Part shown: in pieces, positions 5,199 through 61,667 of the stretch
Layout: each line of letters begins with the position of its first letter
Position numbering within the stretch: the first letter of the stretch is position 1
Virus genome (UHGV): UHGV-1383670
Direction: 5' to 3' (one strand)
Source: a virus
DNA: 61,667 nucleotides
Position numbers and translations under genes: made by a program
Notes under the pieces: model-generated
What the model saw: only the letters and a program-made list of their open reading frames with translations
What the model was told of the DNA's origin: nothing
The model's database searches: none

Positions 5199-5497
5199 CC
5201 GAACCCAAACACAACAGCCAACGCAGGGCGCTTTGGGGGATCGTCGCCCTGTTCACCGTCGCCGGCGCCAGTGCCGGCTTCGCTGGTGGCCAGATTTTCA
5301 CCCGGGCAAAAGCCATCGTTGAGGTGGAGTCGATACGCATCGCTTACGCGGAGGCCGATAAGGCCCGTAGCCAGGCGCTGGAAATGTGCCTCCGCCTGGC
5401 GCCGAAAGCCGCTCTCTCAGCTGCAGACGCAGCAAAAGCCGCCAAGGAAGCCGCACAAGCCGCCAATCAGGCGGCAAAAGATGCGGAGGTTAAATGA
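5195..5497 (+). CDS. Small membrane protein (holin/antiholin candidate)
   Basis: ATGA overlap with the upstream gene. One hydrophobic TM (WGIVALFTVAGASAGFAGG) and an Ala/Lys-rich C-terminus. Confidence 0.4.
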   Translation: MTEPKHNSQRRALWGIVALFTVAGASAGFAGGQIFTRAKAIVEVESIRIAYAEADKARSQALEMCLRLAPKAALSAADAAKAAKEAAQAANQAAKDAEVK

Positions 5498-6072
5498 ACC
5501 TCACCACTCCCGTTACCGTCAAAGTCGCCGCGATCGCTGGTGCTGCATGCCTGGTTGTCGGCCTCGCCGGCGGCGCCGCGATCGGCAACTGGCTTCGTGG
5601 GCTGCAGGCTGATGCGGATATCGCCCAGCTGAAAGCCGACCATAAGGAAGCTGAAAAACAGTGGCTGGTGGACCGGAACGCCATCACCACCAAAGCCCAG
5701 CAGGAAACCGCCGCAGCCCTGGAGCGCGAGCGCCAGGCGCGTGACGCAGCTGCTGATCTCGATACGAAATATCAGGAGCTGTTAGCCAATGAGAAACTTA
5801 AGAATGATGCTCTGCGCGGTGATATTGCCTCTGGCCAGCGCCGGGTGCGTATCCTCGAAGCAAACCTTGCCACCGCCAACCTTGCAGCCCGTCAGCACGC
5901 CGCAGGCGGAAGTGCCGGCGCCGGCAGCGTGGGCGATGGAAAAGGAACCGAGCTTACTGCCGAAGGTGGACTCCTTGTTCTCGATATCCGGGACGGAATC
6001 AAACGCAGAGAAGACAAAATAGAGTACCTGCAGAGTTACATCACGGACGTGGTAAAACAGTGCAAAAGGTAG
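5494..6072 (+). CDS. Rz-like i-spanin
   Basis: N-terminal TM, coiled coil, a GQRRVRIL motif, and an embedded +1-frame lipoprotein gene. Start overlaps the upstream stop. Confidence 0.65.
   Translation: MNLTTPVTVKVAAIAGAACLVVGLAGGAAIGNWLRGLQADADIAQLKADHKEAEKQWLVDRNAITTKAQQETAAALERERQARDAAADLDTKYQELLANEKLKNDALRGDIASGQRRVRILEANLATANLAARQHAAGGSAGAGSVGDGKGTELTAEGGLLVLDIRDGIKRREDKIEYLQSYITDVVKQCKR
5789..6022 (+). CDS. Rz1-like o-spanin lipoprotein embedded in the Rz frame
   Basis: Signal peptide with lipobox-like LASAGC followed by a Pro-rich stretch (LPPPTLQPVSTPQAEVPAP). Lies wholly inside the i-spanin gene in another frame. Confidence 0.55.
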   Translation: MRNLRMMLCAVILPLASAGCVSSKQTLPPPTLQPVSTPQAEVPAPAAWAMEKEPSLLPKVDSLFSISGTESNAEKTK

Positions 6073-9845: not shown

Positions 9846-9847
9846 AC

Positions 9848-46242: not shown

Positions 46243-46608
46243 ATGAGCCTGAAACTCACTAACAACGCCCGCAGCATTCTCGCTGTGTCCATCAGCGCCA
46301 GTGAAACCGTGGTCCGCGTGAAGGTTGGCCACGGCGTCAAGTTCCCGGTGCTGACCAATACGGATGACTGGTTCCCGCTGGCGCTGGAGGATGACTCCGG
46401 GAATATCGAGTATCTGCGCGCGACGGCCAGGGACGGGGACAGCATCACCGTGCAGCGGGGCGCCGAAGGATCCCAGGCCCGGGCGTTCACTGCCGGCGAC
46501 CTGTGTGAGCTGCGTCTGACCGCCGGCGCCATGGACGAGCTGCAGAACGGCGCACCAAGCCCGTCAGTGGTGGGTGCGACCATCAGCGATGCGGTGATCT
46601 CTTCATGA
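46243..46608 (+). CDS. Small structural protein
   Basis: ATG 2 nt after the upstream stop. Its own stop overlaps the next start. Confidence 0.45.
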   Translation: MSLKLTNNARSILAVSISASETVVRVKVGHGVKFPVLTNTDDWFPLALEDDSGNIEYLRATARDGDSITVQRGAEGSQARAFTAGDLCELRLTAGAMDELQNGAPSPSVVGATISDAVISS

Positions 46609-48350
46609 GCACGCGCATAGCAGCGTTTTCCGGGGAAATTCCGCGCGTCATTCCCCGGTTGCTGGATAACAACTTCGCGCAGGTGGCGCAGAACACGAAG
46701 CTGGAGGACGGCTCACTGCTGCCTATCCGGCGGGCGCGGTACGTTCATCGCATGCCGATAAACTGCAAGACCATCTACAAAAACGGTGAGGAGTGGCTGG
46801 GCTGGGATCGTATCGTCCGCGTCGTGCCGGCGCCGGTGGCCGAGAACCGGCTTTATGTGACCGGTGACGGGAAACCGAAGGTGATCGCCAATGGCGTGAC
46901 GTATGACCTGGCGGTGCCGCGTCCGTCCAGTCAGCTGACCATCAGCCTGGTTTCAGGGACGCCAGACCCGAAACTGTCCTCCACCATCCTCTACACCCAC
47001 ACCTGGGTAACGGAGCTGGACGAGGAATCAGAGCCGGCCACGCTCTCTAACGAGCTGCTGTGGAGTCCTGGCCTCGATGTGAAGCTATCCGGCTTTTCGG
47101 CGCCGCCGGCTGGCCGTGGCATCAACCGGATGCGCATCTACCGATCGCAGACCAGCGAAAGCGGGGCCACAAACCTGTATTTCATCCACGAACGCGCGGC
47201 ATCCGCTGCCGATTTCGTGGATGTGGTGGCCGATAATCCCATCAATGAGGTGCTTCCCAGCTCCGACTATAACGCGCCACCGGATGACCTGCAGGGGCTG
47301 ACTTCACTGCCGAACGGCATGATGGCCGCCTTTGTGGGCAAGAAACTGTACTTCTCCGAGCCGTACCGGCCGCATGCCTGGCCGGAAAAGTACATCCTGA
47401 CCTGCGACTATGAGATCGTCGGCCTGGGGGTGTTCGGTACCAGCGTGGCCATCATGACGAACGGCTGTCCGTACGTCGCGCAGGGGACCGCGCCGGAAAA
47501 CATGACGATGGACCGCCTCCGGGTGAACCTGCCATGCCTGAGCGCCAGCAGTATCGTGGACCTGGGCTATTCGGTGGCGTACGCCTCGACGCAGGGGCTG
47601 GTGACGATCTCGCAATCCGGAGCCGTTGTGGCGTCAGAAGGCATGATGACGCGTGACCAGTGGCGCCAGATGCAGCCGGAATCGTTCATCGCCGGCCAGT
47701 TCTCCGGCCGTTACATGGCCTCGTACGCCTATCTCGACGCTGACAACATCGAGCGGCGCGGCATCATCATTTTCGACCTGACCGGCGCGCAGTCGTTTCT
47801 GGTGCGGGCATCCGATAACGCCGACGCGATGTTCTTCGAAATCGGTACCGGCGTGCTGTACATCCTGCGCAACGGCCGCGACGTGTTCGAATGGGACGCT
47901 ATCTCTCAGCCGTACGGGGAAATGTACTGGCGCTCGAAGCGGTTCGTGTCGCCAACCCTCTACAATTGGGGGGCGGTGCTGGTGGAGGGTGAGGACGCCA
48001 CCAGCGACGAGCAAATCAAAGAGCGCATGGCGAAGAACGCGGCCACCCGGGCGCGTAATCGGGCGCGGATGAATGCCGACAACTCGGACGGCGCTCTTGG
48101 TGATGCCGCCCTGGGGGTGGTGACGTTCGCCGGCAGTCTGCTGGAGCCGGTGGAAGAAGAAGACCCGACGTTCTCCTGTACCATTTACGGCGACGGGAAG
48201 CCGCTGATCACGATTTACCAGCTGAACAAGATAGAGCGCCTGCCGGCTAAGCGCCTCTACACCACCATGGAAATCGAGATCCGGGGAAACCAGCGCGTAA
48301 CGGGTATTTCGGTCGGCGGCACGCCCGAAGAGCTGGCAGGAGGTGGCTGA
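46605..48350 (+). CDS. Structural protein (tail/baseplate candidate)
   Basis: 581-aa ORF with overlapping stop/start on both sides. Confidence 0.5.
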   Translation: MSTRIAAFSGEIPRVIPRLLDNNFAQVAQNTKLEDGSLLPIRRARYVHRMPINCKTIYKNGEEWLGWDRIVRVVPAPVAENRLYVTGDGKPKVIANGVTYDLAVPRPSSQLTISLVSGTPDPKLSSTILYTHTWVTELDEESEPATLSNELLWSPGLDVKLSGFSAPPAGRGINRMRIYRSQTSESGATNLYFIHERAASAADFVDVVADNPINEVLPSSDYNAPPDDLQGLTSLPNGMMAAFVGKKLYFSEPYRPHAWPEKYILTCDYEIVGLGVFGTSVAIMTNGCPYVAQGTAPENMTMDRLRVNLPCLSASSIVDLGYSVAYASTQGLVTISQSGAVVASEGMMTRDQWRQMQPESFIAGQFSGRYMASYAYLDADNIERRGIIIFDLTGAQSFLVRASDNADAMFFEIGTGVLYILRNGRDVFEWDAISQPYGEMYWRSKRFVSPTLYNWGAVLVEGEDATSDEQIKERMAKNAATRARNRARMNADNSDGALGDAALGVVTFAGSLLEPVEEEDPTFSCTIYGDGKPLITIYQLNKIERLPAKRLYTTMEIEIRGNQRVTGISVGGTPEELAGGG

Positions 48351-48661
48351 TGGCGATATCCGATAGCGAATGGCTCAAGCTCAAGGAGATCGTTGAAGTC
48401 CTCGCCGGCATGCGCGGCGACAAGACGAAGGCGGCCATCCGGGCTGGCAGCTTCAATCCCCAGGAAACAGTGTTCGCGCTGCGGCAGCTGCAGGAGCAGA
48501 TCGGCCGCATTCTGGCGGAGGTGGAAGAGGTGAATATCGCCGCCCCGACGCAGGGGCAGGTAACGGCACCGCCCACGGCTGCAGAGTTCAACGGGCTGGT
48601 GGCGGACGTGGCGGCTATCCACCAGCAATTAACTGCCCTGGTGAATGCCCTGACCGCATAG
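48350..48661 (+). CDS. Small coiled-coil structural or assembly protein
   Basis: ATGA overlap. 103 aa. Confidence 0.4.
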   Translation: MAISDSEWLKLKEIVEVLAGMRGDKTKAAIRAGSFNPQETVFALRQLQEQIGRILAEVEEVNIAAPTQGQVTAPPTAAEFNGLVADVAAIHQQLTALVNALTA

Positions 48662-48726
48662 CTGCGCTGTATATCTGTTGCCCTTTTAACTATGATGTTG
48701 TCAAAAGGGCAACAGAGGTGAATCGT

Positions 48727-49152
48727 ATGGGCAGCGTTGTCTATGAGGGCAAAGAAGAGCTGGTGGCATGGGCGAGCCAGGTCATCGGCTTTGAACCCCG
48801 TCCGGACGTGGTGGCCATCGGCTGGAGCGATGGCAAGAGGCTGCGTGCAGTAACGTTGTACGACGGCTTTTCGCAGTGTGACTGCAATATGCACATTGCC
48901 AGCGACGGAACGGGCTTCTGGCTGCGCCGGCCGTTCCTGCTGGCGTCCTTCGCTCACCCCTTTGTCCAGTGGAACCTTCGCCGCGTCACCGGCCTGGTGC
49001 CGGCGAAAAATACGGCCGCTCTGCGCTTTGACCTGCACCTGGGTTTCAAGCGCGAAGGCCTCATCCGTCATGCTCTTCCAGATGACGACATCATAGTGCT
49101 TGGGCTGCTGCGCGAGGAATGCCGGTACATCCCCCAGCAATACCGGAGATAA
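48727..49152 (+). CDS. GNAT-family N-acetyltransferase-like protein
   Basis: C-terminus AALRFDLHLGFKREGLIRHAL resembles a GNAT motif. RBS AGAGGTG. Stop 6 nt before the next gene. Confidence 0.45.
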   Translation: MGSVVYEGKEELVAWASQVIGFEPRPDVVAIGWSDGKRLRAVTLYDGFSQCDCNMHIASDGTGFWLRRPFLLASFAHPFVQWNLRRVTGLVPAKNTAALRFDLHLGFKREGLIRHALPDDDIIVLGLLREECRYIPQQYRR

Positions 49153-49157
49153 CCACT

Positions 49158-50141
49158 ATGCAGGTTGAGTTTTCACTCATCGCGACCCTGCTGGCGGCGG
49201 CGTTCCTCTTCACGCAGATGCGCCTGCAGCCCGCACTCGAATATGTCGGCTTCGACCCGGAACGCGATGACCGCGAACCGGAGCAAAAGCCATGGGAAGC
49301 CCTTTTGCTCTTCAAAAAGGGCGGCGGTTCGGCACCATCGCCAGACCCGGCGATCGGCCAGGCGGCGCTAAAAGAGGCCGAGCTGGGCGAAGAATGGCTG
49401 GCGTTCTCCCGCGAGCAGTTTGGCGTAGCGAACGAACGCCAGGCCGAGCAGGACAAGATCGCAAACGAGGTTACGCAGCAGCAGCTCGATGCCAGCAAGC
49501 AGGCGCAGCAGTGGGCCACTGAGGACCGCGACCGCTACAACAACGTCTACAAGCCGATGCAGGACGAGTTCATCGACACTGCAAAGAATTGGGACAGCGC
49601 AGAACGGCAGCAGAAGGTCGCGGACGAGGCGAAAGCCGACGTTCTTACCAACGCCTCTGAGCAGCGCGCGGCATCAGAACGCAATATGGCTTCCATGGGC
49701 GTCAGCCCGACCAGCGGTCGTTTTGCCGGTGTTGAACGAGCTGGCGAGCTGGGAACCACGCTTGCCGCTGCAGGTGCGCAGAACAATGCACGTAACACCG
49801 TCCGCAATCAGGCGGTGGCGATGCAGGCCGACGCTATCAACATGGGTAGCGGCCTCGCGGTAAACCCGGCTTCATCGCTGGGCCTTGGGGTTTCTGCCGG
49901 CAGCGCGGCCATGGGTACCACCTCCGCTAACAACGCCCAGGCTGCAGGAAACGCTGCGATCATGGGGCAGGGCTACAAGGGCGCCATGAGCGGCTACGGC
50001 AACCAGGCCAGCATTCTCAACCAGCAATACGGGAACCAGCTCAACGCCTGGCAGGCTCAGCAGCAGGCAAGCGCCAGCTCCACCGGCGCACTGGCGGGCG
50101 GCATCGGTTCAATGGTCGGTATGGGGATGATGGCATTCTAA
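49158..50141 (+). CDS. Internal virion/ejection protein candidate (N-terminal TM, Q/A/G-rich)
   Basis: TM SLIATLLAAAFLF. Low-complexity Gln/Ala/Gly-rich C-terminus. Confidence 0.45.
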   Translation: MQVEFSLIATLLAAAFLFTQMRLQPALEYVGFDPERDDREPEQKPWEALLLFKKGGGSAPSPDPAIGQAALKEAELGEEWLAFSREQFGVANERQAEQDKIANEVTQQQLDASKQAQQWATEDRDRYNNVYKPMQDEFIDTAKNWDSAERQQKVADEAKADVLTNASEQRAASERNMASMGVSPTSGRFAGVERAGELGTTLAAAGAQNNARNTVRNQAVAMQADAINMGSGLAVNPASSLGLGVSAGSAAMGTTSANNAQAAGNAAIMGQGYKGAMSGYGNQASILNQQYGNQLNAWQAQQQASASSTGALAGGIGSMVGMGMMAF

Positions 50142-50878
50142 TGAAGAGCGTACTCGAAAAGCACAAGAAAATTGCCCTACAGGTATCCGGCGGCCGTGAC
50201 TCGATGGCTTGTCTCTATCGGCTGCACGAAGAAGACCTGTTGCACCTGGTGACGGTCTACTGGCTGAACACCGGCGCCGCGTTCCCCGAAACGAAGGCCA
50301 TTATGGATCACGTCCGGGAGCTGGCGCCGAACTTCGTTGAGATAGCCGGGAACCAGCCGGAGGTTATCGCCCGGTTCGGTATGCCGACCGATATCCTGCC
50401 GCGCACGTCCACGCCGATCGGCGTCGTGACCGGACAGTCGCCGGTGCTGATGCAGGATACCTATTCCTGCTGCGCCCGCGTCGTCATGGAGCCGATGCAC
50501 CGGCGCATGCTGCAGGACGAAGTGACGCTGATTATTCGCGGCCAGCGCGCCAATGACGGCCACCGTTCGCCGCTTTCCTCCGGGGATACGGAGCTGGGTA
50601 TCGAATATCTGTTCCCGATCGAGGATTGGACGGCCGAACAGGTCGATAGCTACCTGCGCGAGCAGGGCGCCCCGATCCACCCGGCCTATGAATTTATGAC
50701 CCAAACGCCCGATTGCATGACGTGCTCAGGCTGGTGGGAAGACAATCGTGCTGCGTTTCTGAAAGCGCGGCATCCGGAGGCATACGCGGAGTATCAGCGC
50801 CGCCTCGACATTATTCGCGAGAACGTCGAGCCGCATATCTTCCGCTTCAACAAAGAGACAGGGGGCCAAAATGGCTAA
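50141..50878 (+). CDS. PAPS-reductase-family PP-loop ATP pyrophosphatase domain protein
   Basis: ALQVSGGRDS is an SGGxDS PP-loop. A Cys cluster CMTCSGWWE near the C-terminus. TAATG coupling to the upstream gene. Confidence 0.65.
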   Translation: MKSVLEKHKKIALQVSGGRDSMACLYRLHEEDLLHLVTVYWLNTGAAFPETKAIMDHVRELAPNFVEIAGNQPEVIARFGMPTDILPRTSTPIGVVTGQSPVLMQDTYSCCARVVMEPMHRRMLQDEVTLIIRGQRANDGHRSPLSSGDTELGIEYLFPIEDWTAEQVDSYLREQGAPIHPAYEFMTQTPDCMTCSGWWEDNRAAFLKARHPEAYAEYQRRLDIIRENVEPHIFRFNKETGGQNG

Positions 50879-51188
50879 TACCTCGCTGGGCCTTGGCGCT
50901 TTCGCAAGCGGAATGGCCAACGGCATGCAGATGGGCATGAAGATGGACCAAATGAACAACAAAGAGAGTAGTGCGGACCTCGCGAAGAAAAACACCGAGG
51001 AGAATAACGCCATTATTTCTCTGGGTTCCCGACCTGGCGCCCCGGGCGCGCAGGCAACACCAGCCATCGGCACACCAGGACAGTCAGCTCAGGCGCCAAC
51101 TGCTGCGCAGGGCGCCCAGCAGCCTGGCGCCGCAGGCGGTTCGCCGTGGTCTTTCATTGGTTCACTGTTCGGAGGCAGCAATGGCTAA
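50871..51188 (+). CDS. Small Gly/Met-rich virion protein (MANTSLGLGAFASGMANGM...)
   Basis: N-terminus paralogous to the next gene. Glycine-zipper-like. Confidence 0.4.
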   Translation: MANTSLGLGAFASGMANGMQMGMKMDQMNNKESSADLAKKNTEENNAIISLGSRPGAPGAQATPAIGTPGQSAQAPTAAQGAQQPGAAGGSPWSFIGSLFGGSNG

Positions 51189-52389
51189 TTTCGGTATTGG
51201 GCTGGGCGCTTTCCTGAACGGCGTCGCGAACGGCGCCAACGTGATGTCGAACATCCAGGACTCCTGGTCCAAAAAAGAGGTTCGCGACATGCAGATCGCG
51301 GACATGAAGCAGGCCCGCGACGATAAGCAGAAGCTGCGTGATACCACTACGCAGGGCATGGCCGATGCGCGGGCGCAGACTGACGGCCAGCTCGATAACG
51401 TCATGAACTTCTACATGCAGAAGACCGCTCCGAAGATCGTGGAGCACTATCTGAGCATTGGCGACCCGCAAACCGCCAACGCCTACAAAACCTGGATTAA
51501 TGACGCGAACGTGCAGCAGGGCGCGAAGTTCGGCGTCGGTATGATGCGCGCGGCCGCCATGAAAGACCTGGACGGCGTGGGCAAGTACATGATGCAGGCC
51601 TATAACCAGCCAGGCTATTTCGAGGACGGCAACACCGCTACCGGCTATACCATCCTCCGCAATGACAAGAACGAACCGACCGGGCTTGAAATCAACCTGA
51701 AAGGTCCGGACGGCAAAGAGTCAAAGCAGACGTTCAACAACATCGATGACGTTTATAAACTGGCAACAACCTTCGGCAATCCGCTGGAGGTGTTCAAAAA
51801 TGGTGTTCAGGCCTATCAGAGCCAGCAGGCCCAGGCCGCGAAAACCCAGGCCGAGCTGGCGAAGGAAGGCCGGGAATGGAAGCGTACGGTCGCAGGGAAA
51901 GAGCTTGACCAGCAATACAAGCTGGAAGGGCAGAACAACGAGGCGCAGCTGAAGGCTGCAGCGGAAGCTGAGAAACGCCGCACAGGAGGCGACAGCAAGA
52001 AGGTCCAGGACGCCGAGGCGGTGGCCGGGTTCCTGAAATCGCAGGGTTACAGCGACGAGTACATTCGGCAGAACGCGCCGGCGCTGGTGGGTATTCAGAA
52101 CCAGAGCCGTTCTATGTCCGCGCGTATTCAGGATGTCATCAAGCTGCAAACCGAGAACTCCCGAGAGTTCCGCAAGCTCACTCCTGACCAGCAGGTGCAG
52201 GAGGCCCGTAAGTTCATCGATATGATCGACCGTAACGCCCAGGGCGCTACGCCGACGGACGGCGGGGGTATGGGGCTGACGCCGCAAAGCGGCCAGACGC
52301 AGCAGAACGCGCAGCAGCCGGCGCAAACGCAGGGGCAGGGGCTTACGCCGTTCTACGACACCCGCACCAATTCCATTATTTATCGCTAA
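51181..52389 (+). CDS. Internal virion protein (MANFGIGLGAFLNGVANGA...)
   Basis: ATG at 51181 overlaps the upstream stop. N-terminus paralogous to the gene at 50871. The track's longer frame from 50971 was rejected. Confidence 0.5.
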   Translation: MANFGIGLGAFLNGVANGANVMSNIQDSWSKKEVRDMQIADMKQARDDKQKLRDTTTQGMADARAQTDGQLDNVMNFYMQKTAPKIVEHYLSIGDPQTANAYKTWINDANVQQGAKFGVGMMRAAAMKDLDGVGKYMMQAYNQPGYFEDGNTATGYTILRNDKNEPTGLEINLKGPDGKESKQTFNNIDDVYKLATTFGNPLEVFKNGVQAYQSQQAQAAKTQAELAKEGREWKRTVAGKELDQQYKLEGQNNEAQLKAAAEAEKRRTGGDSKKVQDAEAVAGFLKSQGYSDEYIRQNAPALVGIQNQSRSMSARIQDVIKLQTENSREFRKLTPDQQVQEARKFIDMIDRNAQGATPTDGGGMGLTPQSGQTQQNAQQPAQTQGQGLTPFYDTRTNSIIYR

Positions 52390-52398: not shown

Positions 52399-55300
52399 GT
52401 GGCTCAAAACGACTTCTTCACTACTGCAGCCGATCGCGCACTGGCTGAACAGCCATCATTTGGGTTGCCGGAGTTTGCCAAGACCGAACGCGCACCGAGC
52501 AGCATTCCCGCCGGCGGCGCGGTACCGTTCCAGGCCGCCTTCAATGCGGCCGCGCAGCGCTATGGCGTGCCGGTAAACGTGCTGATGGCGCTGGGGGAGC
52601 AGGAATCCCGCTTCAACCCGACAGCGCTGGGTGTGCCGACCAAATACGGCCGCGCGAAGGGGCTGATGCAGTACATCGACTCGACCGCTGCCGGCATGGG
52701 TATCAACCCGTATGACCCGGTGCAGTCCATTGATGCCGCCGCGCGGCAGCTGCGTGATCGCCTGGCGAAGGGGTATTCCATGCAGGAGGCCGTCTCCGCG
52801 CACTTTGCGGGCGACGATCGCAAGCAGTGGGGACCGAAGACTGCAGTTTATGGCCAGGAGGTGCTGGCGCGCGCAGAGAAGTTCCTGAACGGCGGCAAGG
52901 CCTCCGTCACGCAGCCGACGCCTGGCCAGCAGCAGAATGGCGTCCAGCCGTTCGATATGAGCCAGGAGCAAGAAGCGTACCCGGCCGCGCAGAGTGCCAT
53001 GGAGAACATGGACCAGAACCGCCTGCGCACCCAGGCCTTGCTCGATGATATGAACAAGGAGGAGCCTGGCCGCTATCGCGCGCTTACTCCTGACGAGCTG
53101 GCGCAGCTGCAGCAACAGGCCCAGGGTCAGCAGAACCAGCAGCCACAGCAGAAAGTCGGGAACACCGACCCGACGCCGCTAACGGTACCGGGCGAGGTGC
53201 CGCAGGGGAACAAAGACGGCAATCTGCTGACCGATACCGGCAACCTCCTGTTGTCCGGACTGAACACGGCCGCCAAGGATGCCAAAGAGCTGGTCAGCCG
53301 TATCCCGTATGTCGGTAAGCCCATTGTCGATGCAGCCGACCGTTTCGACCGCTGGGCGAACGGAAAGGGATCCGAAGAAATCTTCAAAGAATGGGACAAG
53401 AACGTAGAGGCGAGCTTATCGCCGGAAATGGTTCGGTCCCGTAAAAGTGCCTGGGTGGTAGAGCCTGGCGACGACCTGGGGAACGGCAAAAAGGCAACCA
53501 GCTACAGTTTCGGTCCCGCCTGGTCTGACCCGCGTGCGTACATGTCCGGCATGCTGGAATCCCTGCCGGAAATGGCCGTAACAATGGGCGGAGCCGGTCG
53601 CCTTGCCAGTATGTCCTACAAAGCCGCACTGCGCGCTGGCGCTTCGCGTGAAGTGGCTGCGAAAGCCGCTGCGCGTACCGCCACCATTGCCGGTGGTCTG
53701 CTGGAAGGTGGCCTGGGTGGCGCTCAGTCTGCGCGTGAAGTGCGCGACGACATCAACAAGATGACGCCTGACCAGCTCAAGAACTCCGATGCGCTCAAGG
53801 CGATTATGGCGCAGGGCAAATCGTTTGAGCAGGCCCGTAGCGAGCTGGCAGAGGACGCGGCGACCCGCGCTTTCGTCGTTGCCGGCATCGGTACCGGGCT
53901 GTTTGGTGGTATGGGCGACCGCGCTATCGCGAAGGTTGTCACGAACCGCGCCGGCGGCCGTATCCGTTCCGCCATCACCGGCGCCATCGGTGAAGGCCTG
54001 TTCGAAGAGGTTCCGCAAAGCGTCCTGCAGCAGGGTGGCCAGAACTATGCCCTGCAGGAAGCTGACCCAAGCATTCCGCTGACGAAGGGTGTGGCCAACG
54101 CTGCCGGCGGTGGCCTGGCCATCGGCGCCACGATGGGCGCCGGCATCGGTGCAGCTGTTCCGCACGCTGGTACCAATGAAGTGAACCAGCAGCCGGCGGC
54201 CGCGCCGGTCGATACCGTTGACCCAACGCCGACCCCGGCGGAAGCCTCCGGACCTATTGGCCGTGCAATGCAACGCGGCGCCCCGGCTGCAGCTCCCGTC
54301 GAGACTCCGGCCGTTCAGACCGAAGAGGCTGCGCAGCCGGCACAGCCGACGCAGGCAGAACAGCCGGCGGCCAGCGCCAACGAATTCATGGGACCGGTAG
54401 GGGCGGCGACGACCGTCACGCCGAAAGAGGATCCTGCAGGAGCATTTGCCGGCACGGTCGAGCGCTATCAGGACGGCGATGTCATCGTGCGCGGTGAGGA
54501 CGGTTCGGTTTACCAGTTCGGCCCTGGCGATGTCATTCCGCCGGACCTGCAGCAGGCACAGACCCAGCAGCAGGAGGCCCAGCCGGCAACCGAAACCGCC
54601 TCAAATGAGGGCGAAAAACCGGAAGTGGGTCGCGTCGTCGAGGAAGAACGACCGGCAACCAGGACGCTCGACCAAATGGAAGAGCCGGAGCTGCGCGAGC
54701 GTCTCAAGTACCTCGCACGCCAGGCGAAACAAACCGGGTGGGATAACCGCCTTATGGCCGAGCGCCGCAAAGTAGAGGCCGCTATCGATGCAAAAACCAA
54801 GCAGGCAGTTCCAGGAAATGACAAAGAGCAGGGCGCTCCGGTATCTGGTGAAAAACCGGCTGATAACGCGGGAGCAGCACGCAGCGACGTGGCGCGAGCT
54901 GAACCTGCAGCAGGGGAAACCGGACCCGCAGCTGTCACCGGAAATGAACAGGATATGGGAGCTGGTGGCGCTGCTGACGTGGCCAGCGCCGGCGATCGTT
55001 CACTGACCACCAGCCAGCCGGCCGCCGATGCGAAGGTGAAATGGTTCGGCACCGCTGAGAAGGCGCAGGCCTACATAGAGAAGAAAGGCCTGGGTGGCTC
55101 TCACGAAGTTCGCCCAGCCGGACGTTCTCGCTTCGAAGTTCAGCCTAAGGGCGAAAATGTCCAGGACGCACCGGCCGCAGCTGCAACCACGAAGGAGCTG
55201 ACCGGTGCAGGGCCGCGCTATAACCGCGCGCGTAAGCTGGTGGGCGAAATCGGATCCGCTGTGTCCCCGTCTGGTGACGTTGGCACCAGCGTGAAGGCTG

Positions 55301-58300
55301 GCCGCAAATATCGCATTTCCCGTATCGAGAAAAACGGCATCGTTCACCTGGTCGATCAGGAGAGCGCCGATAGCGCCCGTATCTCCGTTGCCGAAATGGA
55401 AGCAGCGCGCTCGCGCAACGTGGCCTGGAATAAGGTTGCCGAAACCCAAAGGCAAAAAGAGGATGCCGCCCGCGCTCGTTATGGTCTGGAGCCGCAGGAG
55501 TTCATCGACCGCAACCTGGGCGAAATGGTTCAAACCGCGCAGGACGAAACCGAGCGGGCGCTGGCGACGGCCAAGGACGTTCAGGACGGTCTGGATGGCC
55601 TCATCGATGATGTCCGGAAGGATGCAAATGCCATCGACGGCGAAGTCGTTGCCCGAAGTGTTGCTGAAACGGCATCGTCAGCACCGAAGGGGCAACAAAG
55701 GCTGACGGATGAGAGCCGCGCCACCCGGCCGGACGTTGTTGGGGAAATCTACTCGCCAACGGAGGACATTGCCCGCACTGCAAAAGCGGGTCGCAACTAC
55801 GAGCTGATCGAGAAGGGCGCCAGCGGTTATATCCGTCTGCGTGACGTGGAATCCGGTGCCGAAATGAACATCCCGGCCGGCGTTCTCCAGCAGAACGAAG
55901 GCAACTGGATTGCCCGGAACGCCGAAGATTCCGCACCAGGAGCGGCAAAAACTGAGCCACAAACGGCCGAAACTGCAACAGATCAGCCCGAAAGTGCATC
56001 AGAGCAGGCCAGAACCTCAGAAAACGCGCCCAAAACTGAATACGGCGCAACCAACAAACTGGTATCGCAGGACCGCGCGGCCGAGCTGCGTAAGAAGCTG
56101 AAAGCCAAATTCAGCCAGCTCAACAGCGGCCTGGATCCGGAAATCCTGGCCATCGGTACCGAGCTGGCCGTGTTCCACCTGGAAGCCGGCGTGCGCAAGT
56201 TCGCTGACTTCGCCCGCACCATGGCCTCAGATCTCGATGTGCCGCTCAACCGCCTGCGCCCATATCTGCGCAGCTGGTACAACGGCGGCCGCGATATGAT
56301 GGAAGACAGCGGTATATCCATCGAGGGTATGGACAGCCCCGAGACTGTTCGTGCCGAATTAGCTAAACTGAATACCGAAGAACAACCGCAACCTGTCTCG
56401 CAGCCGGCTGGCTCGCTTGATGACATGGTTGCTCAATTTGACCGCGAGGTAACGACCGATGAACCTAAACGTCTGGATCAGCCAGGCCAGGGACCACTGG
56501 AAGGAATTCCAGCCGACCCTGTTCAAAGAGCTGAAAGCCAAGAACCAGCTGGGGAACGCGCTGCGCGACGCAGCGGAACGGACACACCAGGAAATGAGCG
56601 AGCTGGAAGCCCAGGGATTCAGCAACCACGAAGCCTGGGAGATGACGCGCGAGAAGTATCTGTTCCCGCCGGAAGAGGCGAGCCTGCAGCAGCCGGACAG
56701 CGAAACGAACCCGGCAGCGAAACGGATGCAGGACGTAATGGCGATAGTGAACGCGCCGTACGAAGAGAGCGAAACCGACCTGTAGCCGGTACGGTTGCCG
56801 AGGATCGCCCCGTTGGTGCATTCACCATCAACGCGGACGAAATCGGCAAGGGCGGCGACAAAACGAAGTATCGCAATAACGTTGCCGCTATCCGCCTGCT
56901 GAAAGAGCTGGAAACGGCCAACCGGCCGGCGACCCGCGAAGAGCAGGCGATCCTTTCTAAATACGTTGGCTGGGGAGGCCTGCCGCAGGCCTTCGAACGC
57001 ACTGACGGCAGCGCCAATAAGGGCTGGGAAAAAGAAGTCGCGGATCTCAAGGCGCTGATGACGCCGGAAGAGTACCGCGCCGCGCAATCCTCCACGAAGA
57101 ACGCTCACTACACCAGCCCGGAGATCGTCTCCGGGATGTGGGATGCCATGCGCCGCCTGGGCTTCACCGGTGGCCGCGTCATCGAGCCGTCCGTGGGCGT
57201 CGGCAACTTCTTCGGCCTGATGCCGGCAGACGTTCGCGCCGCTTCTGCGCTTCATGGCGTCGAGCTGGACCACATCACCAGCGGCATTGCGACCCAGCTC
57301 TATCCGGAGGCGAAAATCGCCCGGATGGGGTACCAGGATTACGTTATCCCGGATGGCTATTTCGACATCGCGATCGGCAACCCGCCGTTCGGTGCCGATA
57401 AGCTGTACGACGGCCGTCGCAAAGACCTGTCCGGCTTCAACATCCACAACTACTTCTTCGCCCGCTCCGTCGATGCGCTGCGCCCTGGTGGCGTCCTGGG
57501 CATGGTGGTGACGAACCGCATGCTGGATAGCGCCAGCGATAAGGCCCGCCAGTACATTGCCGACCGTGCCGACTTCCTGGGCGCCATTCGTCTGCCGAAC
57601 AACGCGTTCGCGAAGAACGCCGGTACCGAGGTGACGACCGATATCATTTTCCTGCGCCGTCGCGCGGAAGGTGAGGCGCCGGCCGGTGCGCAGTGGATGA
57701 ACACCGTGGACTATACCGACAAGGAAGGCCGCACGGTGCCGCTGAACGAGTATTTCGCGGCCAACCCGGACATGATGCTGGGCGACTTCGGCGCCTATGG
57801 ATCGATGTACCGCGAAGGCGAGCCGGCGCTGGTGGCCCGGGAAGGGCAGAACACCGCCGCCGAGCTGGCCAAGGCAATCGCCCGCCTGCCGGAGAACATC
57901 ATTACCCGCGTCGAATCGGTCAAACCGGAAACCCGCGCGACCGTCGCGGCCGAAAATGCCCGCGTAGGCTCCATGTTCCTGGACGGCGACCAGGTGATGA
58001 TCCGCCGCGATGACGTGATGGGCGAAAGCCAGGGCGAAGCCGTATCGTTCCCGAACGAGAAAGCCCGCCAGCGCGTCACCGGCATGATTGGTCTTCGCGA
58101 CCACCTGGCCGACCTGCGTAAGCTGCAGCTCGACCCGCGCGCAGACGAAACCCGCATCGAGGCCGCTCGCGGCCGTCTCAACCAGGTCTATGACGCCTTC
58201 GTGAAGGAGTTTGGCCCGGTAAACCTGGACGCGAACAAGCGTCTATTCCGCGACGATCCGACCTGGCCACAAATCTCCGCGCTGGAAGAGGGATTTGACA

Positions 58301-61300
58301 AGGGTATCTCTGCCGCCGTGGCGAAGAAGACCGGCGAGGAAGCCCGGGCGCCGAGCGCCTCGAAAGCGGCGATCTTCTCCAAGCGTACGCAGTCGCCATA
58401 CTCGCCGCCGACCAGCGCCAGTACGGCAAAAGATGCCCTGGTGACGGCGCTGGCCGAGCGCGGCCACGTCGATATGGCCATGATGAGCGAGCTATACGGC
58501 AAATCGGAGGATGAGATTGCCCGCGAGCTGGGCGACCTGATTTTCTCCGACCCGAATAAGGGCTGGGTGACGCGCGACGAATACCTGTCCGGCAATGTGA
58601 AAGCGAAGCTGGCGCAGGCCCGCGAACGTGCGCAGACCGATCCGGCCTATGCCCGCAACGTCGAGGCGCTGGAGGCGGTGCAGCCGAAAGACATCGAGGC
58701 GGTGGACATCAGCGTGAAGCCTGGCGCCAGCTGGTTGCCGGCCGACACGATGGCCGCGTTCGCGAACCATATCGCGGAAACCACCGACGCGAAGGCCTTC
58801 TACAACCCGGTGACGGCAAAATGGTCGTTCCCCGGGCTGAATGCCAGCGCTGCAGCTGCTGCGCGCTTCGGTACCGGCCGCATGGATGTGAAGAGCATCA
58901 TCGAGGCCGCTGCCGCGCAGAAGTCCCTGCAGGTCTACGACAACCACCCGGACGGCTCGCGTACGCTGAACGAGACAGAAACGCAGCTGGCCAACGACAA
59001 GGCGAACGCCGTACGCGAAGAGTTCGGCCGCTGGATCTGGTCCGAAGACGCCCGCCGGCAGACGCTGGCCCGCCTCTATAACGACCAGTTCAACACCGAC
59101 GTGCCGCGCGTGTACGACGGCTCTCACCTGACGTTCCCGGGCAAAATTAGCGACGACATCATTCGCCTGCGCCCGCACCAGGGTAATGCCGTCTGGCGCA
59201 TCGTGCAGGGCGGCTCGACGTTGACCGACCACGTTGTCGGCGCCGGCAAGACCTTCACCCTGATCGCCGCGGCTATGGAGCTGCGCCGCATGGGACTGGC
59301 CCGCAAGCCGGTATTTGCGGTGCCGAACCACCTGGTAGGGCAGTGGGCGGCCGACTTCGTGAAACTGTACCCGGGCGCCAACGTCCTGGCCGCGACGAAG
59401 AAGGATTTCGAGAAGGAGAACCGCAAGCGCCTGTTCGCCCGTATCGCGACCGGCGATTGGGACGCGGTGATCGTCGCGCACTCCTCGTTCGGTAAAGTGC
59501 AGGTTGACCCGCAGGCTGAGGCTGAGTTCATCCAGGAGCAGATTGCAGACCTGGAGGCCTCTATCGAGGCTATCCGCGAGGCAGAGGGCCGCAGCAGCCG
59601 CAACGTGAAAGACGCGGCCAAGCGCCGCGACGCACTGCAGGAGAAGCTGAAAGCCCTGCTGGATACCGAGAACAAGGATGATTCCCTGTACTGGAACGAG
59701 CTGGGTATCGATGCGCTGTTCGTGGACGAGGCGCACGAATTTAAGAACCTGGCTTACTCCACCAGCATGCGCAACGTCGCAGGCCTGGGCGACACCAAAG
59801 GCAGCCAGAAGGCCATGGATATGTTCATGAAGGTCCGCCAGGTGCTGAAAGCCACCGGCGGCCGGAACGTCGTGTTTGCGACCGGTACGCCGATCTCGAA
59901 CACCATGGCAGAAATGTACACCATGCAGCGCTACCTGGATTACGACACGCTGCAGGCGCAGGGGCTGTCGCACTTCGACGCCTGGGCGCGCATGTTTGGC
60001 GAGGTGGTGACGGATTGGGAGCTGTCGCCGTCCGGCAAGTACAAGATGAACAGCCGCTTCGCGAAGTTCGTCAACATGCCGGAGCTGATGCAGCGCTACA
60101 CGTCGTTCGCGGACGTAATCAACCGCGATGACATCAACCGCCAGCTGGCCGCCCAGGGCAAAAAGCTGCCGGTGCCGAAGGTGGCCGGCGGCAAGCCGAC
60201 CAACGTTGTGGTGCAGCGCAGCCAGGACCAGGCGGACTACATCGGGGAGCCGGTGAAGGATGCCGACGGCAATGACACTGACCAGTACCCGCGCGGAACG
60301 CTGGTCTGGCGTTCGGAGAACCTGCCGAAGCGTCCGGAGAAGGGCGCCGACAACATGCTCAAAATCATGTCTGACGCCCGTAAAGCGGCGCTGGATATGC
60401 GTCTCATCGACCCACGCTATCCGGATCACCCGCACAGCAAGGTCAACGAGGCGGCTGACCGCATCCTGGGGCATTACCAGAAGTGGCACGACGATCGCGG
60501 CACGCAGCTGGTGTTCATCGACCTGTCTACGCCGAAGAACGCGAAGGCCGGCGAGGCCGCACGGCTGCGCGACCTGGCCGAACGCGCCGACAACGGCGAC
60601 GAGGACGCGATCGCCGCGCTGGACAAAATCAGTCCGGACGAGCTGCTTGCGCTGGAAAGCGATTTCTCCGTCTACGATGACCTGAAACAGAAGCTCATCG
60701 CCCGGGGCATCCCGGAGGCGGAAGTCGCGTTCATCCACGACGCCAAAACCGAGCTGCAGAAAGAAGAGCTGTTCGGCAAGGTCCGCACCGGCCGCATCCG
60801 CGTGCTGTTAGGCTCCACCGCGAAGATGGGCGCCGGCATGAACGTGCAGGATCGGCTGGTGGCGCTGCATCACCTGGATGCACCGTGGCGCCCGTCCGAC
60901 CTGGAGCAGCGCGAGGGCCGCATCATCCGCCAGGGTAACAGGCTGTATGAGCGCGACCCGGAGGGCTTTGAAGTCCATATCGAGCGCTATGCGACCAAGC
61001 AGACGCTGGACAGCCGTATGTGGCAGACCATCGAAGGGAAGGCGAACTTCATCGAGCAGGTACGCAAGGGCAATACCGGCGTACGCGAGATCGAGGACGT
61101 GGGCGGCGAGGCGGCCAACGCGGCCGAGATGAAAGCGGCATCGAGCGGCAATCCGCTTATCCTGGAAGAGATGACCCTGCGCCAGCGCATCCGTCGTCTG
61201 GAGAACGAGCGCACCGGCCACGACCGCGAGCAGTTCAGGATCCGCGATAGTATCCAGTACCAGCAGAAGCGCGCCGTCTATGCCGAGCGTGAACTTGCCG

Positions 61301-61667
61301 ACCTGCGTAAGGACGTGAAACGCGCCCAGCCTGCAGAGTTCGCCATGACCATCGGCAACGAGACGTTCGATAAGCGTAAGGACGCCGGCGAAGCCATCCT
61401 GGCCGCTGCCGCGAACATGGAGCAGAACGGCATCGCAGAGCAGGATATCGGCAGCTATGGCGACTTTACCCTGCATCTGTACCGCCTGAGCGCAGAACAG
61501 TACGAAATTACGGTGCAGGGCGCTGGCGCCTATACCGCGAAGTTCGGCCTGGGTGCGGATCCTGTCGGTACCGCGATGCGCGTCACCAATGCCGTGAAGG
61601 ATTTGGGCGGCGCCATCGAGAAAATGGAGCAGGCTCGCGACCAGGCGCAGGCGACCGTTCCGAAACT
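52399..61667 (+). CDS. Giant polyvalent virion/ejection protein, 5' ~9.3 kb (3' partial; no stop before the window end). Domains: SLT lytic transglycosylase, DarB-like N6-adenine methyltransferase, SNF2/DExH helicase.
   Basis: GTG at 52399 after AAGGGG. SLT motif LMALGEQESRFNPTA...GLMQY. MTase motif I EPSVGVGNF and motif IV DIAIGNPPFG (nt ~57360). Helicase motifs GAGKTFT, VDEAHEFKN, TGTPISN and QREGRIIRQGN. No frame-1 ORF is reported in the track after 52389, which means no in-frame stop through to nt 61667. Confidence 0.75.
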   Translation, partial: MAQNDFFTTAADRALAEQPSFGLPEFAKTERAPSSIPAGGAVPFQAAFNAAAQRYGVPVNVLMALGEQESRFNPTALGVPTKYGRAKGLMQYIDSTAAGMGINPYDPVQSIDAAARQLRDRLAKGYSMQEAVSAHFAGDDRKQWGPKTAVYGQEVLARAEKFLNGGKASVTQPTPGQQQNGVQPFDMSQEQEAYPAAQSAMENMDQNRLRTQALLDDMNKEEPGRYRALTPDELAQLQQQAQGQQNQQPQQKVGNTDPTPLTVPGEVPQGNKDGNLLTDTGNLLLSGLNTAAKDAKELVSRIPYVGKPIVDAADRFDRWANGKGSEEIFKEWDKNVEASLSPEMVRSRKSAWVVEPGDDLGNGKKATSYSFGPAWSDPRAYMSGMLESLPEMAVTMGGAGRLASMSYKAALRAGASREVAAKAAARTATIAGGLLEGGLGGAQSAREVRDDINKMTPDQLKNSDALKAIMAQGKSFEQARSELAEDAATRAFVVAGIGTGLFGGMGDRAIAKVVTNRAGGRIRSAITGAIGEGLFEEVPQSVLQQGGQNYALQEADPSIPLTKGVANAAGGGLAIGATMGAGIGAAVPHAGTNEVNQQPAAAPVDTVDPTPTPAEASGPIGRAMQRGAPAAAPVETPAVQTEEAAQPAQPTQAEQPAASANEFMGPVGAATTVTPKEDPAGAFAGTVERYQDGDVIVRGEDGSVYQFGPGDVIPPDLQQAQTQQQEAQPATETASNEGEKPEVGRVVEEERPATRTLDQMEEPELRERLKYLARQAKQTGWDNRLMAERRKVEAAIDAKTKQAVPGNDKEQGAPVSGEKPADNAGAARSDVARAEPAAGETGPAAVTGNEQDMGAGGAADVASAGDRSLTTSQPAADAKVKWFGTAEKAQAYIEKKGLGGSHEVRPAGRSRFEVQPKGENVQDAPAAAATTKELTGAGPRYNRARKLVGEIGSAVSPSGDVGTSVKAGRKYRISRIEKNGIVHLVDQESADSARISVAEMEAARSRNVAWNKVAETQRQKEDAARARYGLEPQEFIDRNLGEMVQTAQDETERALATAKDVQDGLDGLIDDVRKDANAIDGEVVARSVAETASSAPKGQQRLTDESRATRPDVVGEIYSPTEDIARTAKAGRNYELIEKGASGYIRLRDVESGAEMNIPAGVLQQNEGNWIARNAEDSAPGAAKTEPQTAETATDQPESASEQARTSENAPKTEYGATNKLVSQDRAAELRKKLKAKFSQLNSGLDPEILAIGTELAVFHLEAGVRKFADFARTMASDLDVPLNRLRPYLRSWYNGGRDMMEDSGISIEGMDSPETVRAELAKLNTEEQPQPVSQPAGSLDDMVAQFDREVTTDEPKRLDQPGQGPLEGIPADPVQRAESQEPAGERAARRSGTDTPGNERAGSPGIQQPRSLGDDAREVSVPAGRGEPAAAGQRNEPGSETDAGRNGDSERAVRRERNRPVAGTVAEDRPVGAFTINADEIGKGGDKTKYRNNVAAIRLLKELETANRPATREEQAILSKYVGWGGLPQAFERTDGSANKGWEKEVADLKALMTPEEYRAAQSSTKNAHYTSPEIVSGMWDAMRRLGFTGGRVIEPSVGVGNFFGLMPADVRAASALHGVELDHITSGIATQLYPEAKIARMGYQDYVIPDGYFDIAIGNPPFGADKLYDGRRKDLSGFNIHNYFFARSVDALRPGGVLGMVVTNRMLDSASDKARQYIADRADFLGAIRLPNNAFAKNAGTEVTTDIIFLRRRAEGEAPAGAQWMNTVDYTDKEGRTVPLNEYFAANPDMMLGDFGAYGSMYREGEPALVAREGQNTAAELAKAIARLPENIITRVESVKPETRATVAAENARVGSMFLDGDQVMIRRDDVMGESQGEAVSFPNEKARQRVTGMIGLRDHLADLRKLQLDPRADETRIEAARGRLNQVYDAFVKEFGPVNLDANKRLFRDDPTWPQISALEEGFDKGISAAVAKKTGEEARAPSASKAAIFSKRTQSPYSPPTSASTAKDALVTALAERGHVDMAMMSELYGKSEDEIARELGDLIFSDPNKGWVTRDEYLSGNVKAKLAQARERAQTDPAYARNVEALEAVQPKDIEAVDISVKPGASWLPADTMAAFANHIAETTDAKAFYNPVTAKWSFPGLNASAAAAARFGTGRMDVKSIIEAAAAQKSLQVYDNHPDGSRTLNETETQLANDKANAVREEFGRWIWSEDARRQTLARLYNDQFNTDVPRVYDGSHLTFPGKISDDIIRLRPHQGNAVWRIVQGGSTLTDHVVGAGKTFTLIAAAMELRRMGLARKPVFAVPNHLVGQWAADFVKLYPGANVLAATKKDFEKENRKRLFARIATGDWDAVIVAHSSFGKVQVDPQAEAEFIQEQIADLEASIEAIREAEGRSSRNVKDAAKRRDALQEKLKALLDTENKDDSLYWNELGIDALFVDEAHEFKNLAYSTSMRNVAGLGDTKGSQKAMDMFMKVRQVLKATGGRNVVFATGTPISNTMAEMYTMQRYLDYDTLQAQGLSHFDAWARMFGEVVTDWELSPSGKYKMNSRFAKFVNMPELMQRYTSFADVINRDDINRQLAAQGKKLPVPKVAGGKPTNVVVQRSQDQADYIGEPVKDADGNDTDQYPRGTLVWRSENLPKRPEKGADNMLKIMSDARKAALDMRLIDPRYPDHPHSKVNEAADRILGHYQKWHDDRGTQLVFIDLSTPKNAKAGEAARLRDLAERADNGDEDAIAALDKISPDELLALESDFSVYDDLKQKLIARGIPEAEVAFIHDAKTELQKEELFGKVRTGRIRVLLGSTAKMGAGMNVQDRLVALHHLDAPWRPSDLEQREGRIIRQGNRLYERDPEGFEVHIERYATKQTLDSRMWQTIEGKANFIEQVRKGNTGVREIEDVGGEAANAAEMKAASSGNPLILEEMTLRQRIRRLENERTGHDREQFRIRDSIQYQQKRAVYAERELADLRKDVKRAQPAEFAMTIGNETFDKRKDAGEAILAAAANMEQNGIAEQDIGSYGDFTLHLYRLSAEQYEITVQGAGAYTAKFGLGADPVGTAMRVTNAVKDLGGAIEKMEQARDQAQATVPK

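Follow-up and report, generated by a model that had tools for sequence, protein, structure and literature searches.

The giant gene and its circular junction

The DNA analysed here is UHGV virus genome UHGV-1383670, a stretch of 61,667 nucleotides (nt) that we call the window. Its largest gene, the giant gene, is cut by the ends of the record and encodes a predicted protein of 4,419 amino acids (aa) and ~486 kDa when translated from its first start codon, a GTG at 52399. This product is likely a 'polyvalent' virion protein of a Lastavirus/Pavtokvirus-like temperate podophage, which would be packaged, ejected and protect the incoming DNA by means of an LPD36-methylase-SNF2 dyad. The start codon is preceded, seven bases upstream, by the Shine-Dalgarno-like AAGGGG, and the same GTG is called on an independent European Nucleotide Archive (ENA) contig. 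A TAA stop ends at 52389, from where the frame is open from 52390 to 61667 (3,092 codons plus 2 nt), so that the coordinates and the size of ~4400 aa given in a preliminary description of this DNA are correct.

When 61667 is joined to position 1, the frame continues to a stop codon at 3989-3991, in line with the earlier proposal that the gene runs over the window junction into a zincin domain. This end-to-start junction is genuine, because homologue alignments and an independent scaffold both cross it. BLASTP alignments to the homologues PEp14 gp27 (4,914 aa) and LASTA gp01 (4,433 aa), each encoded by a single open reading frame (ORF), pass residue 3089/3090 unbroken. An ENA scaffold from a metagenome assembly (61,636 bp; ERZ28662711 scaffold_188, sample SAMEA3665125) matches the window with 100% identity from 58802 through 61667 and 1 to 13991; judged by its label, the sample may come from the human gut. 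With the junction verified in two ways, the window represents a circularly permuted complete genome with an arbitrary start that cuts the giant gene.

Over 26.8 kb, the sole difference between the window and this scaffold is a segment of 91 extra nt in the window (~58712-58802). Their absence from the scaffold leads to two separate gene calls (2,107 and 2,282 aa) that are read in different frames and overlap by 4 nt. Given this public assembly of the same virus, in which the loss of 91 nt breaks the coding sequence into two overlapping frames, the long ORF might be an assembly artefact or a decaying gene, and the true locus a pseudogene or a pair of genes. We give this hardly any credence. The 91 nt encode 30 residues that align gap-free to PEp14 and LASTA, inside 120-aa stretches at 76-78% identity, and cultured relatives carry single ORFs of 4,433-4,914 aa. 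Moreover, the same sort of record artefact is documented for the homologue of phage POI1126, whose 14,526-bp gene was obtained by joining the two 'methylase' ORFs found at either end of a plasmid record (PMC5492332). On the strength of the gap-free alignment, the intact version in the window is judged to be the authentic, ancestral and functional form, and the ENA scaffold carries either an assembly error or a defective variant. No flanking repeat that could explain the loss was found at the borders of the segment. The scaffold is 31 nt shorter than the window even though it lacks 91 nt; about 60 nt therefore differ elsewhere, probably as terminal overlap. The 91-nt loss and the splits at record ends illustrate how giant genes are mis-called as two genes in databases.

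Domain architecture

From N- to C-terminus, the giant protein comprises an SLT lytic transglycosylase domain, a Gly-rich N-terminal module (N-module), an LPD36-like region with an N6-adenine methylase, an SNF2-type helicase, a zincin, large polyvalent-protein-associated domain 39 (LPD39) and a PLxRFG domain (Table 1). The SLT domain, Gly/Ala-rich stretches, methylase and helicase had been named in this order in the preliminary description, and both Pfam and the motifs bear this out: profile searches recover Eco57I for the methylase and ResIII, SNF2-rel_dom and Helicase_C for the helicase, and the catalytic motifs of the SLT domain, methylase and helicase are all canonical. The LPD36-like region carries GWGG (aa 1524), followed by the methylase motifs YTSP (aa 1571), VGVGNF (motif I, aa 1599) and NPPF (motif IV, aa 1661); LPD36 and the TP-motif are described in Iyer et al. 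2017 (PMC5512222). The helicase motifs are RPHQ (aa 2258), GAGKT (aa 2281), DEAH (aa 2443), TGTP (aa 2495) and QREGRIIRQG (aa 2837). The SLT domain lies at the same N-terminal position in LASTA gp01, PEp14 gp27 and Bcep22 gp75. The Gly/Ala-rich stretches (aa ~400-600) fall inside the N-module and include a weak hydrophobic peak at aa 569-587.

Table 1. Position of the giant gene, its predicted domains and the neighbouring gene modules in the window.
Feature	Position	Strand	Residues and basis
Giant gene, 5' part	52399..61667	+	aa 1-3089 and two bases of codon 3090; PHROG 10089 match
Giant gene, 3' part	1..3991	+	third base of codon 3090 to stop 3989-3991; contiguous with 61667 on the circular map
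SLT lytic transglycosylase	52537..52821	+	aa 47-141; Pfam PF01464, E 5e-14; EQES aa 67-70, GLMQ aa 88-91
Conserved Gly/Ala-rich N-terminal module	53188..54798	+	aa ~264-800; phrog_938 match aa 271-738; 38% identity to Bcep22 gp75
LPD36-like helical region and gamma-class N6-adenine methyltransferase	56806..57768	+	aa ~1470-1790; Pfam Eco57I aa 1651-1725
91-nt segment, SVKPGASWLPADTMAAFANHIAETTDAKAFY	58712..58802	+	aa 2105-2135; absent from the otherwise identical ENA scaffold (blastn)
SF2/SNF2-type helicase (translocase), both lobes	59161..61098	+	aa 2255-2900; Pfam ResIII/SNF2-rel_dom aa 2255-2452, Helicase_C aa 2765-2846
Putative zincin-like metallopeptidase (MPTase)	359..901	+	aa ~3210-3390; HEIMH aa 3280-3284 (nt 569-583); E3363 in SEYWAE (nt 815-832)
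LPD39	1190..1810	+	aa 3487-3693; Pfam PF18858, E 6e-58
PLxRFG domain	1928..3946	+	aa 3733-4405; PLARFG aa 3737-3742, nt 1940-1957; mostly alpha-helical
Upstream virion module	46605..52389	+	PHROG matches; Pfam PAPS_reduct
Internal virion protein	46605-48350	+	PHROG
Virion protein	48350-48661	+	PHROG
Acyl-CoA N-acyltransferase	48718-49152	+	PHROG
Virion protein	49119-50141	+	PHROG
Phosphoadenosine phosphosulfate (PAPS)-reductase-like protein	50141-50878	+	Pfam PAPS_reduct
Virion protein	50971-52389	+	PHROG
Lysis cassette	4258..6072	+	endolysin 4258-4848, holin-like ~4848-5198, gene of unknown function 5195-5497, Rz-like spanin 5494-6072

The zincin call is based on conservation and modelling, because no Pfam model matches the HExxH region. 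HExxH occurs once in the giant protein, with ~0.05 occurrences expected from its composition. Of 25 non-identical homologues, 19 carry the motif at a constant spacing before PLxRFG, and it is found likewise in PEp14 and LASTA. In an alignment of 17 sequences that are 11-56% identical to the query, just four columns are invariant, namely H3280, E3281, H3284 and E3363, the last being the distal zinc-ligand Glu. Such a combination of H/E/H with a distal Glu is the zinc-binding signature of gluzincins, which Iyer et al. 2017 report for the MPTase of polyvalent proteins (PMC5512222). The AlphaFold2 model of the region has a mean predicted local distance difference test (pLDDT) score of 64, with 70-97 in the core, and arranges a helix, a three-stranded sheet, the HExxH helix and a Glu helix. 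The invariant residues and the modelled fold thus support, with moderate to good confidence, that the domain is a zincin, as had been proposed from the motif.

At the C-terminus, NCBIfam model NF032893 ('tail-700') matches with 768 bits against a cut-off of 100 and with 679 of its 681 profile positions covered. Two hydrophobic helices lie in the PLxRFG domain (aa 3923-3955 and 4151-4172). Their hydrophobicity is moderately conserved, and that they insert into a membrane is weak speculation.

Pfam gave zero matches at E <= 10 to the HExxH region, to aa 142-1467 and to the PLxRFG domain. Searches for MuF and DUF4157 had been proposed earlier, and neither was found with Pfam, the threshold for MuF (Phage_Mu_F) being E <= 0.1 over the whole protein and E <= 10 over the unassigned regions. 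A sequence search of the PDB with the giant protein returned a single meaningful match, the BsaXI methylase (E 1e-3), and nothing meaningful for the C-terminal 1,329 aa. Self-BLAST detected no internal repeats. By eye, the linker that leads up to the methylase contains two segments of ~40 aa (aa ~963-1003 and ~1129-1166; window ~55285-55407 and ~55783-55896) that have the pattern AKAGRxY…G…L.D.ES in common and are possibly a repeated small domain that self-BLAST does not detect.

Relatives of the giant protein

The giant protein matches PHROG 10089 ('DarB-like antirestriction', 4,647 positions) from end to end, with 3,769 bits for aa 1-3089 and 1,196 bits for aa 3091-4419, where the last profile position is reached. 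At the DNA level (megablast), the gene is 77-79% identical in PEp14, Pavtok, Stean, LASTA, SJM3, SopranoGao and Pseudomonas phage Itty13; Sinorhizobium phage PBC5 is also among the matches. A tblastn search with the methylase-helicase dyad retrieved 152 phage records, including VvAW1, Atu_ph08 and POI1126 at 58-64% identity, Bcep22, BcepIL02, BcepMigl, CSP3 and many Ralstonia phages at ~35% over 98% of the query, and the DarB proteins of P1 and P7 at ~24%. Named relatives further comprise a 3,764-aa protein of Parlo, JC1 gp69, Atu_ph08 gp21, POI1126 ORF30 and Bcep22 gp75.

PEp14 gp27 (4,914 aa; also present in Pavtok), annotated as 'DarB-like antirestriction', has the full architecture, i.e., SLT, N-module, LPD36-methylase-SNF2, HExxH zincin, LPD39 and PLxRFG. 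In the numbering of the window protein, BLASTP identities amount to 54% (aa 1-1018), 72% (aa 1327-3147) and 57% (aa 3142-4419), and the neighbouring genes and downstream lysis cassette match as well. On the other hand, gp27 is ~500 aa longer by an extra linker, the host of PEp14 is Erwinia and the remaining genome is only patchily similar. The closest phages overall are LASTA, SJM3 and SopranoGao, with tail proteins that are 85-88% identical and a gp01 annotated as 'PLxRFG protein' (4,433 aa, 495 kDa); all four Lastavirus phages encode such a 495-kDa PLxRFG protein (ZX1 paper, PMC9505181). LASTA gp01 shares ~70% identity over aa 877-3139 and 49% over aa 3485-4419, with the SLT domain at the same position and HExxH present, but BLASTP aligns neither the first ~590 aa of the window protein nor its zincin region (aa 3140-3485) to it. 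The window protein hence appears as a mosaic, its first ~590 aa and zincin aligning with Erwinia phage PEp14 and not with LASTA, while the remaining genome is closest to Klebsiella Lastavirus.

More distant members of the class are the 'DarB-like antirestriction proteins' of Lessievirus, Bcep22 gp75 (4,602 aa) and JC1 gp69 (4,515 aa). Bcep22 gp75 sits in the same gene-for-gene module, has an N-terminal SLT domain and is 38% identical over aa 218-803 of the window protein (gp75 aa 215-793) and 34% over aa 1200-3103. In both Bcep22 and JC1, however, the C-terminal ~1,300 aa have no detectable similarity to the window protein and no PLxRFG motif. By these alignments, the giant protein is assigned as an orthologue of PEp14 gp27 and LASTA gp01 and placed in the same class as Bcep22 gp75. 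So classified, it joins the already described 'DarB-like / PLxRFG' virion-protein family of Klebsiella, Erwinia, Serratia and Burkholderia podophages.

The fusion of SLT, methylase and helicase is already in print (PMC6606913, PMC6630229, PMC9144972). The announcement of Parlo lists N-terminal transglycosylase, methyltransferase and helicase domains in its 3,764-aa 'DarB homolog' (PMC6606913), and the Atu_ph08 paper discusses a DarB-like protein of 4,877 aa and notes the lytic transglycosylase of Bcep22 (PMC6630229). JC1 gp69 was detected by mass spectrometry in virions purified on caesium chloride, in a paper that cites Gill et al. 2011 for virion proteomics of Bcep22 and BcepIL02 and names gp75 a DarB homologue (PMC9144972). 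The 'polyvalent proteins', with the LPD36-methylase-SNF2 module, the MPTase and the LPD domains, were defined by Iyer, Burroughs, Anand, de Souza and Aravind in 2017 (PMC5512222). The window protein fits their definition, as unrelated catalytic domains (a transglycosylase, a methylase, a helicase and a zincin with HExxH plus Glu) and LPD domains are joined in one polypeptide among late genes. They are, however, a class concept rather than a single family, and PLxRFG is not named in that paper (0 occurrences).

The functional reading of the preliminary description was therefore largely right and is essentially the accepted annotation of the family. Its claim that such a protein is unusual and not characterised fails, as the family is recognised through PHROG 10089, the NCBIfam PLxRFG model, PEp14 gp27 and the published fusions. 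With the domain fusion of such giants noted since 2011-2019, the gene itself matters little as a discovery. Among host defence systems, DISARM DrmD and MADS MAD2 were considered and rejected as relatives: they score 29-51 bits against cut-offs of 610-1,100 and match locally, at the level of domains.

Relation to DarB of phage P1 and to ejected proteins of T7 and N4

The DarB-type pairing of methylase and helicase that had been proposed for this gene is recovered, at a distance, as three collinear high-scoring segment pairs (HSPs) with P1 DarB, covering the methylase (28% identity), the first helicase lobe (23%) and the second lobe (27%), with E-values of 7e-21, 2e-19 and 2e-7. The methylase HSP spans DarB aa 91-275 (pairwise E 5e-23) and the helicase HSPs span DarB aa 784-1184 and 1461-1556. 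In P1, DarB travels in the capsid and shields the entering DNA against EcoB and EcoK (PMC9024508; PMC5512222). It differs from the window protein in several respects. At 2,255 aa, it has NVPF in place of NPPF and DEGH in place of DEAH, lacks SLT, zincin, LPD39 and PLxRFG, and belongs to a myovirus. It is also equipped with a 30-aa N-terminal capsid-targeting signal, as described in PMC9024508, and with the helpers DarA, Hdf, DdrA, DdrB and Ulx. The methylase of the window protein is preceded by 1,470 residues that are unrelated to DarB. From these comparisons, the window protein relates to the DarB dyad as a distant homologue and places it in another delivery scaffold; it is thus 'DarB-like' and not a DarB orthologue.

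T7 gp16 carries an N-terminal SLT domain. Together with the virion RNA polymerase of N4 (gp50), it forms a pair of functional analogues, being very large proteins of podovirus capsids that are ejected into the cell. For neither was sequence similarity to the window protein found beyond the SLT or zincin folds, and the cargo of the window protein is a methylase-helicase and not an RNA polymerase. Of the earlier comparison with T7 gp16-type ejected proteins, the SLT domain stands, whereas no Pfam, PHROG or PDB match to T7-type internal virion proteins was obtained. The resemblance to T7 gp16 is a functional analogy, since only the SLT domain is common to both. In N4 gp50, an MPTase-type zincin lies in the region required for encapsidation (PMC5512222).

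A constant C-terminus with variable upstream domains

A profile of the PLxRFG domain retrieves 14,979 cluster representatives (50% identity level), 8,832 of them at E <= 1e-30. Among the 150 best representatives, with protein lengths of 932-5,657 aa (36 of the 150 measure at least 4,000 aa), the domain is at the extreme C-terminus in all 150. Module counts among these 150 were obtained by single-sequence phmmer searches and are lower bounds. LPD39 precedes the PLxRFG domain in at least 144 of them, whereas the helicase is found in at least 37, the methylase in at least 32, the N-module in at least 16 and the SLT domain in at least 12. The full architecture of the window protein occurs in at least three.

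The relatives P0028 and P0029 (2,243 aa) align to the SLT domain, the N-module and LPD39-PLxRFG and skip the whole methylase-helicase-zincin centre. Because they keep LPD39-PLxRFG while lacking this centre, the C-terminal pair can be seen as a constant anchor to an exchangeable upstream payload. The P0028 gene (9580-16311; Logan SRR11013089_490) is located on a small element with an integrase, a PrimPol-AAA_25 gene and a small terminase, in a phage-satellite-like organisation. The N-module is likewise common to polyvalent proteins with other cargo, namely P0027 (LPD23), P0030 (ART-PolyVal) and P0028/P0029. A homologue search with the N-terminal part gave 5 matches, probably because its low-complexity sequence conflicts with the shared-word requirement.

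Accordingly positioned at the very end of each of these proteins, the LPD39-PLxRFG pair could be a cargo-agnostic module for capsid loading and injection, an idea that we put forward tentatively and hold to be somewhat less probable than its negation. It builds on the invariably extreme C-terminal location of the pair, on its occurrence in ~15,000 clusters and in the satellite-like element of P0028, on the alternative domains that accompany the N-module and on the upstream content, where about one in four of the best representatives has a DarB-type dyad and most have other or undetected domains. A role of PLxRFG in packaging or ejection is a guess from its position and ubiquity. If the idea is true, phages possess a general 'protein syringe' with a payload that is swapped by recombination, the window protein being one of its configurations, and the LPD39-PLxRFG module could deliver heterologous proteins. 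The class is abundant (~15,000 PLxRFG clusters), with many members of 4,000-5,600 aa that take up about a fifth of each genome, and the chassis-and-cargo pattern provides a concrete, testable hypothesis for the injection of large enzyme payloads by phages.

Proposed function

The reading of the giant protein as a packaged, ejected and DNA-protecting polyvalent protein is carried by the intact ORF, the end-to-end family match, the synteny with Bcep22 gp67-gp75 and the collinear DarB HSPs. The upstream gene order is identical to Bcep22 gp67-gp74 and to PEp14 and LASTA, with the giant gene as the last one before the lysis genes. As suggested by homologues and synteny, the protein would be made late and packaged inside the capsid. 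During ejection through the tail, the SLT domain would cut peptidoglycan locally for the ejection apparatus and the DNA, in analogy with T7 gp16. The LPD36-methylase-SNF2 dyad would then enter with the genome and shield the DNA in cis from type I-like restriction; by the example of P1 DarB and the analysis of Iyer et al. 2017, it may do so by translocating along the DNA and methylating and/or occluding it. The zincin MPTase may cut the polyprotein into working pieces before or after delivery. Finally, the architecture statistics suggest that LPD39-PLxRFG would load the protein into the virion or drive its exit, with the upstream domains as exchangeable cargo.

The same domains allow a reading in which DNA entry itself is the primary task. 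The protein would then be an ejectosome or DNA-entry machine of which the SLT domain opens the wall, the hydrophobic or Gly-rich segments (aa 400-600, 3923-3955 and 4151-4172) form a conduit and the SNF2-type translocase pulls in the 61.7-kb genome, parallel to the enzyme-driven genome internalisation of T7 and N4, with the methylase being secondary. The N-terminal position of the SLT domain, shared with T7 gp16, fits this picture, as does the retention in several podophage genera of a ~13-kb gene that occupies about a fifth of the genome. Gill et al. in 2011 reportedly suggested for the Bcep22 protein that it may 'facilitate DNA entry'. SNF2 enzymes are, moreover, translocases of double-stranded DNA (PMC5512222). 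Yet P0028/P0029-type relatives retain the SLT domain, the N-module and LPD39-PLxRFG wholly without the helicase, and the translocase is therefore dispensable for the chassis. No more than about a quarter of the best PLxRFG representatives contain a detectable dyad. The same dyad occurs in conjugative elements and in myophage P1, in the latter as an anti-restriction factor and not an entry motor (PMC5512222, PMC9024508). An entry machine is therefore an unlikely, though still appreciable, alternative.

Far less probable is that the protein remains unpackaged, as a late cytoplasmic enzyme that methylates or remodels replicating phage DNA next to virion genes by coincidence. Its methylase and helicase motifs are intact and no proteomics was found in the literature for PLxRFG-type giants, both of which agree with such an enzyme. 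An N-terminal SLT domain would, however, have no substrate in the cytoplasm, and the synteny with virion genes is conserved in Bcep22, PEp14 and LASTA. The presence of JC1 gp69 in purified virions (PMC9144972) and the association of LPD39 and the polyvalent-protein context with delivered proteins (PMC5512222) likewise speak against it, as does the virion DNA of POI1126, which behaves as unmethylated towards EcoRI and EcoRV (PMC5492332).

This digestion result also counts against the protective role that we favour, as bulk methylation by the POI1126 homologue is not evident, and it is joined by several other points. In the searchable literature, we found no published virion proteomics for PEp14, LASTA, SopranoGao or ZX1 and no demonstration of anti-restriction for any giant homologue. 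The relatives with proteomic support, Bcep22 and JC1, are those that have no detectable similarity to the C-terminal 1,300 aa of the window protein, and the model of the PLxRFG domain has low confidence and no fold match, with a merely moderate conservation of helix hydrophobicity. The similarity to P1 DarB does not exceed 23-28% identity and covers about a third of the dyad query. The window protein has no counterpart of the N-terminal capsid-targeting region of DarB (the pairwise alignment starts at DarB residue 91), and the names DarA, Hdf, DdrA, DdrB and Ulx do not occur among the window ORFs scanned against PHROGs, no dedicated search for these proteins having been made. These accessory proteins are reported to be absent from Lessieviruses as well (PMC9144972).

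Genome context, host and lifestyle

The virion genes upstream of the giant gene and the lysis cassette downstream of it agree with the context given in the preliminary description, except that the upstream virion proteins are not detectably paralogous. Paralogy was rejected on the basis of an all-against-all BLASTP comparison (E > 0.6). The acyltransferase and PAPS-reductase-like genes among these virion genes occupy the same positions in Bcep22 (gp69 and gp73), and the acyltransferase is also present in LASTA (gp05). The lysis cassette was delineated by PHROG matches and by Pfam Muramidase and Phage_lysis on the ENA gene calls. It is followed by an integrase on the opposite strand, and a CI-like helix-turn-helix repressor is present.

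The genome has a guanine-cytosine (GC) content of ~60%. The tail protein encoded at 36571-39261 shares 85-88% identity with its counterparts in SopranoGao, ZX1 and LASTA, and a 1,240-aa fibre shares 53% identity in its distal part with Klebsiella phages DP and BIS47. Since the tail proteins are closest to those of Klebsiella phages, a Klebsiella-like enterobacterial host is likely, probably Klebsiella or a close relative, and a temperate lifestyle is likely because of the integrase. The assignment to a temperate enterobacterial phage made earlier is thus probably correct. Complete E. coli genomes contained no match to a close prophage, and species-representative genomes scanned with the PLxRFG domain yielded only alphaproteobacterial prophages at 46-76% identity.

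A low-GC island at 40001-44000 (0.50-0.54 compared to ~0.60 elsewhere) lies inside the gene of the 1,240-aa tail fibre (39277-42999). The N-terminal 150 aa of this fibre are ~80% identical to SopranoGao, while its distal part is closest (53%) to unrelated Klebsiella myophages, which would fit the horizontal exchange of a receptor-binding or depolymerase domain. A 181-aa ORF of the early leftward operon (11307-11852, minus strand) contains a Tad2-like domain (Thoeris anti-defence 2, PF11195, E 4e-20) and is a second candidate anti-defence gene of the phage. Adjoining the integrase, a gene at 7536-8165 (minus strand) encodes a protein with an Asp/Asn beta-hydroxylase domain (PF05118, E 3e-25) and may be a moron or lysogenic-conversion gene. 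Finally, ARAGORN predicts an 80-nt tRNA-Gly with anticodon ACC at 12734-12813 on the plus strand, opposite to the neighbouring early genes.

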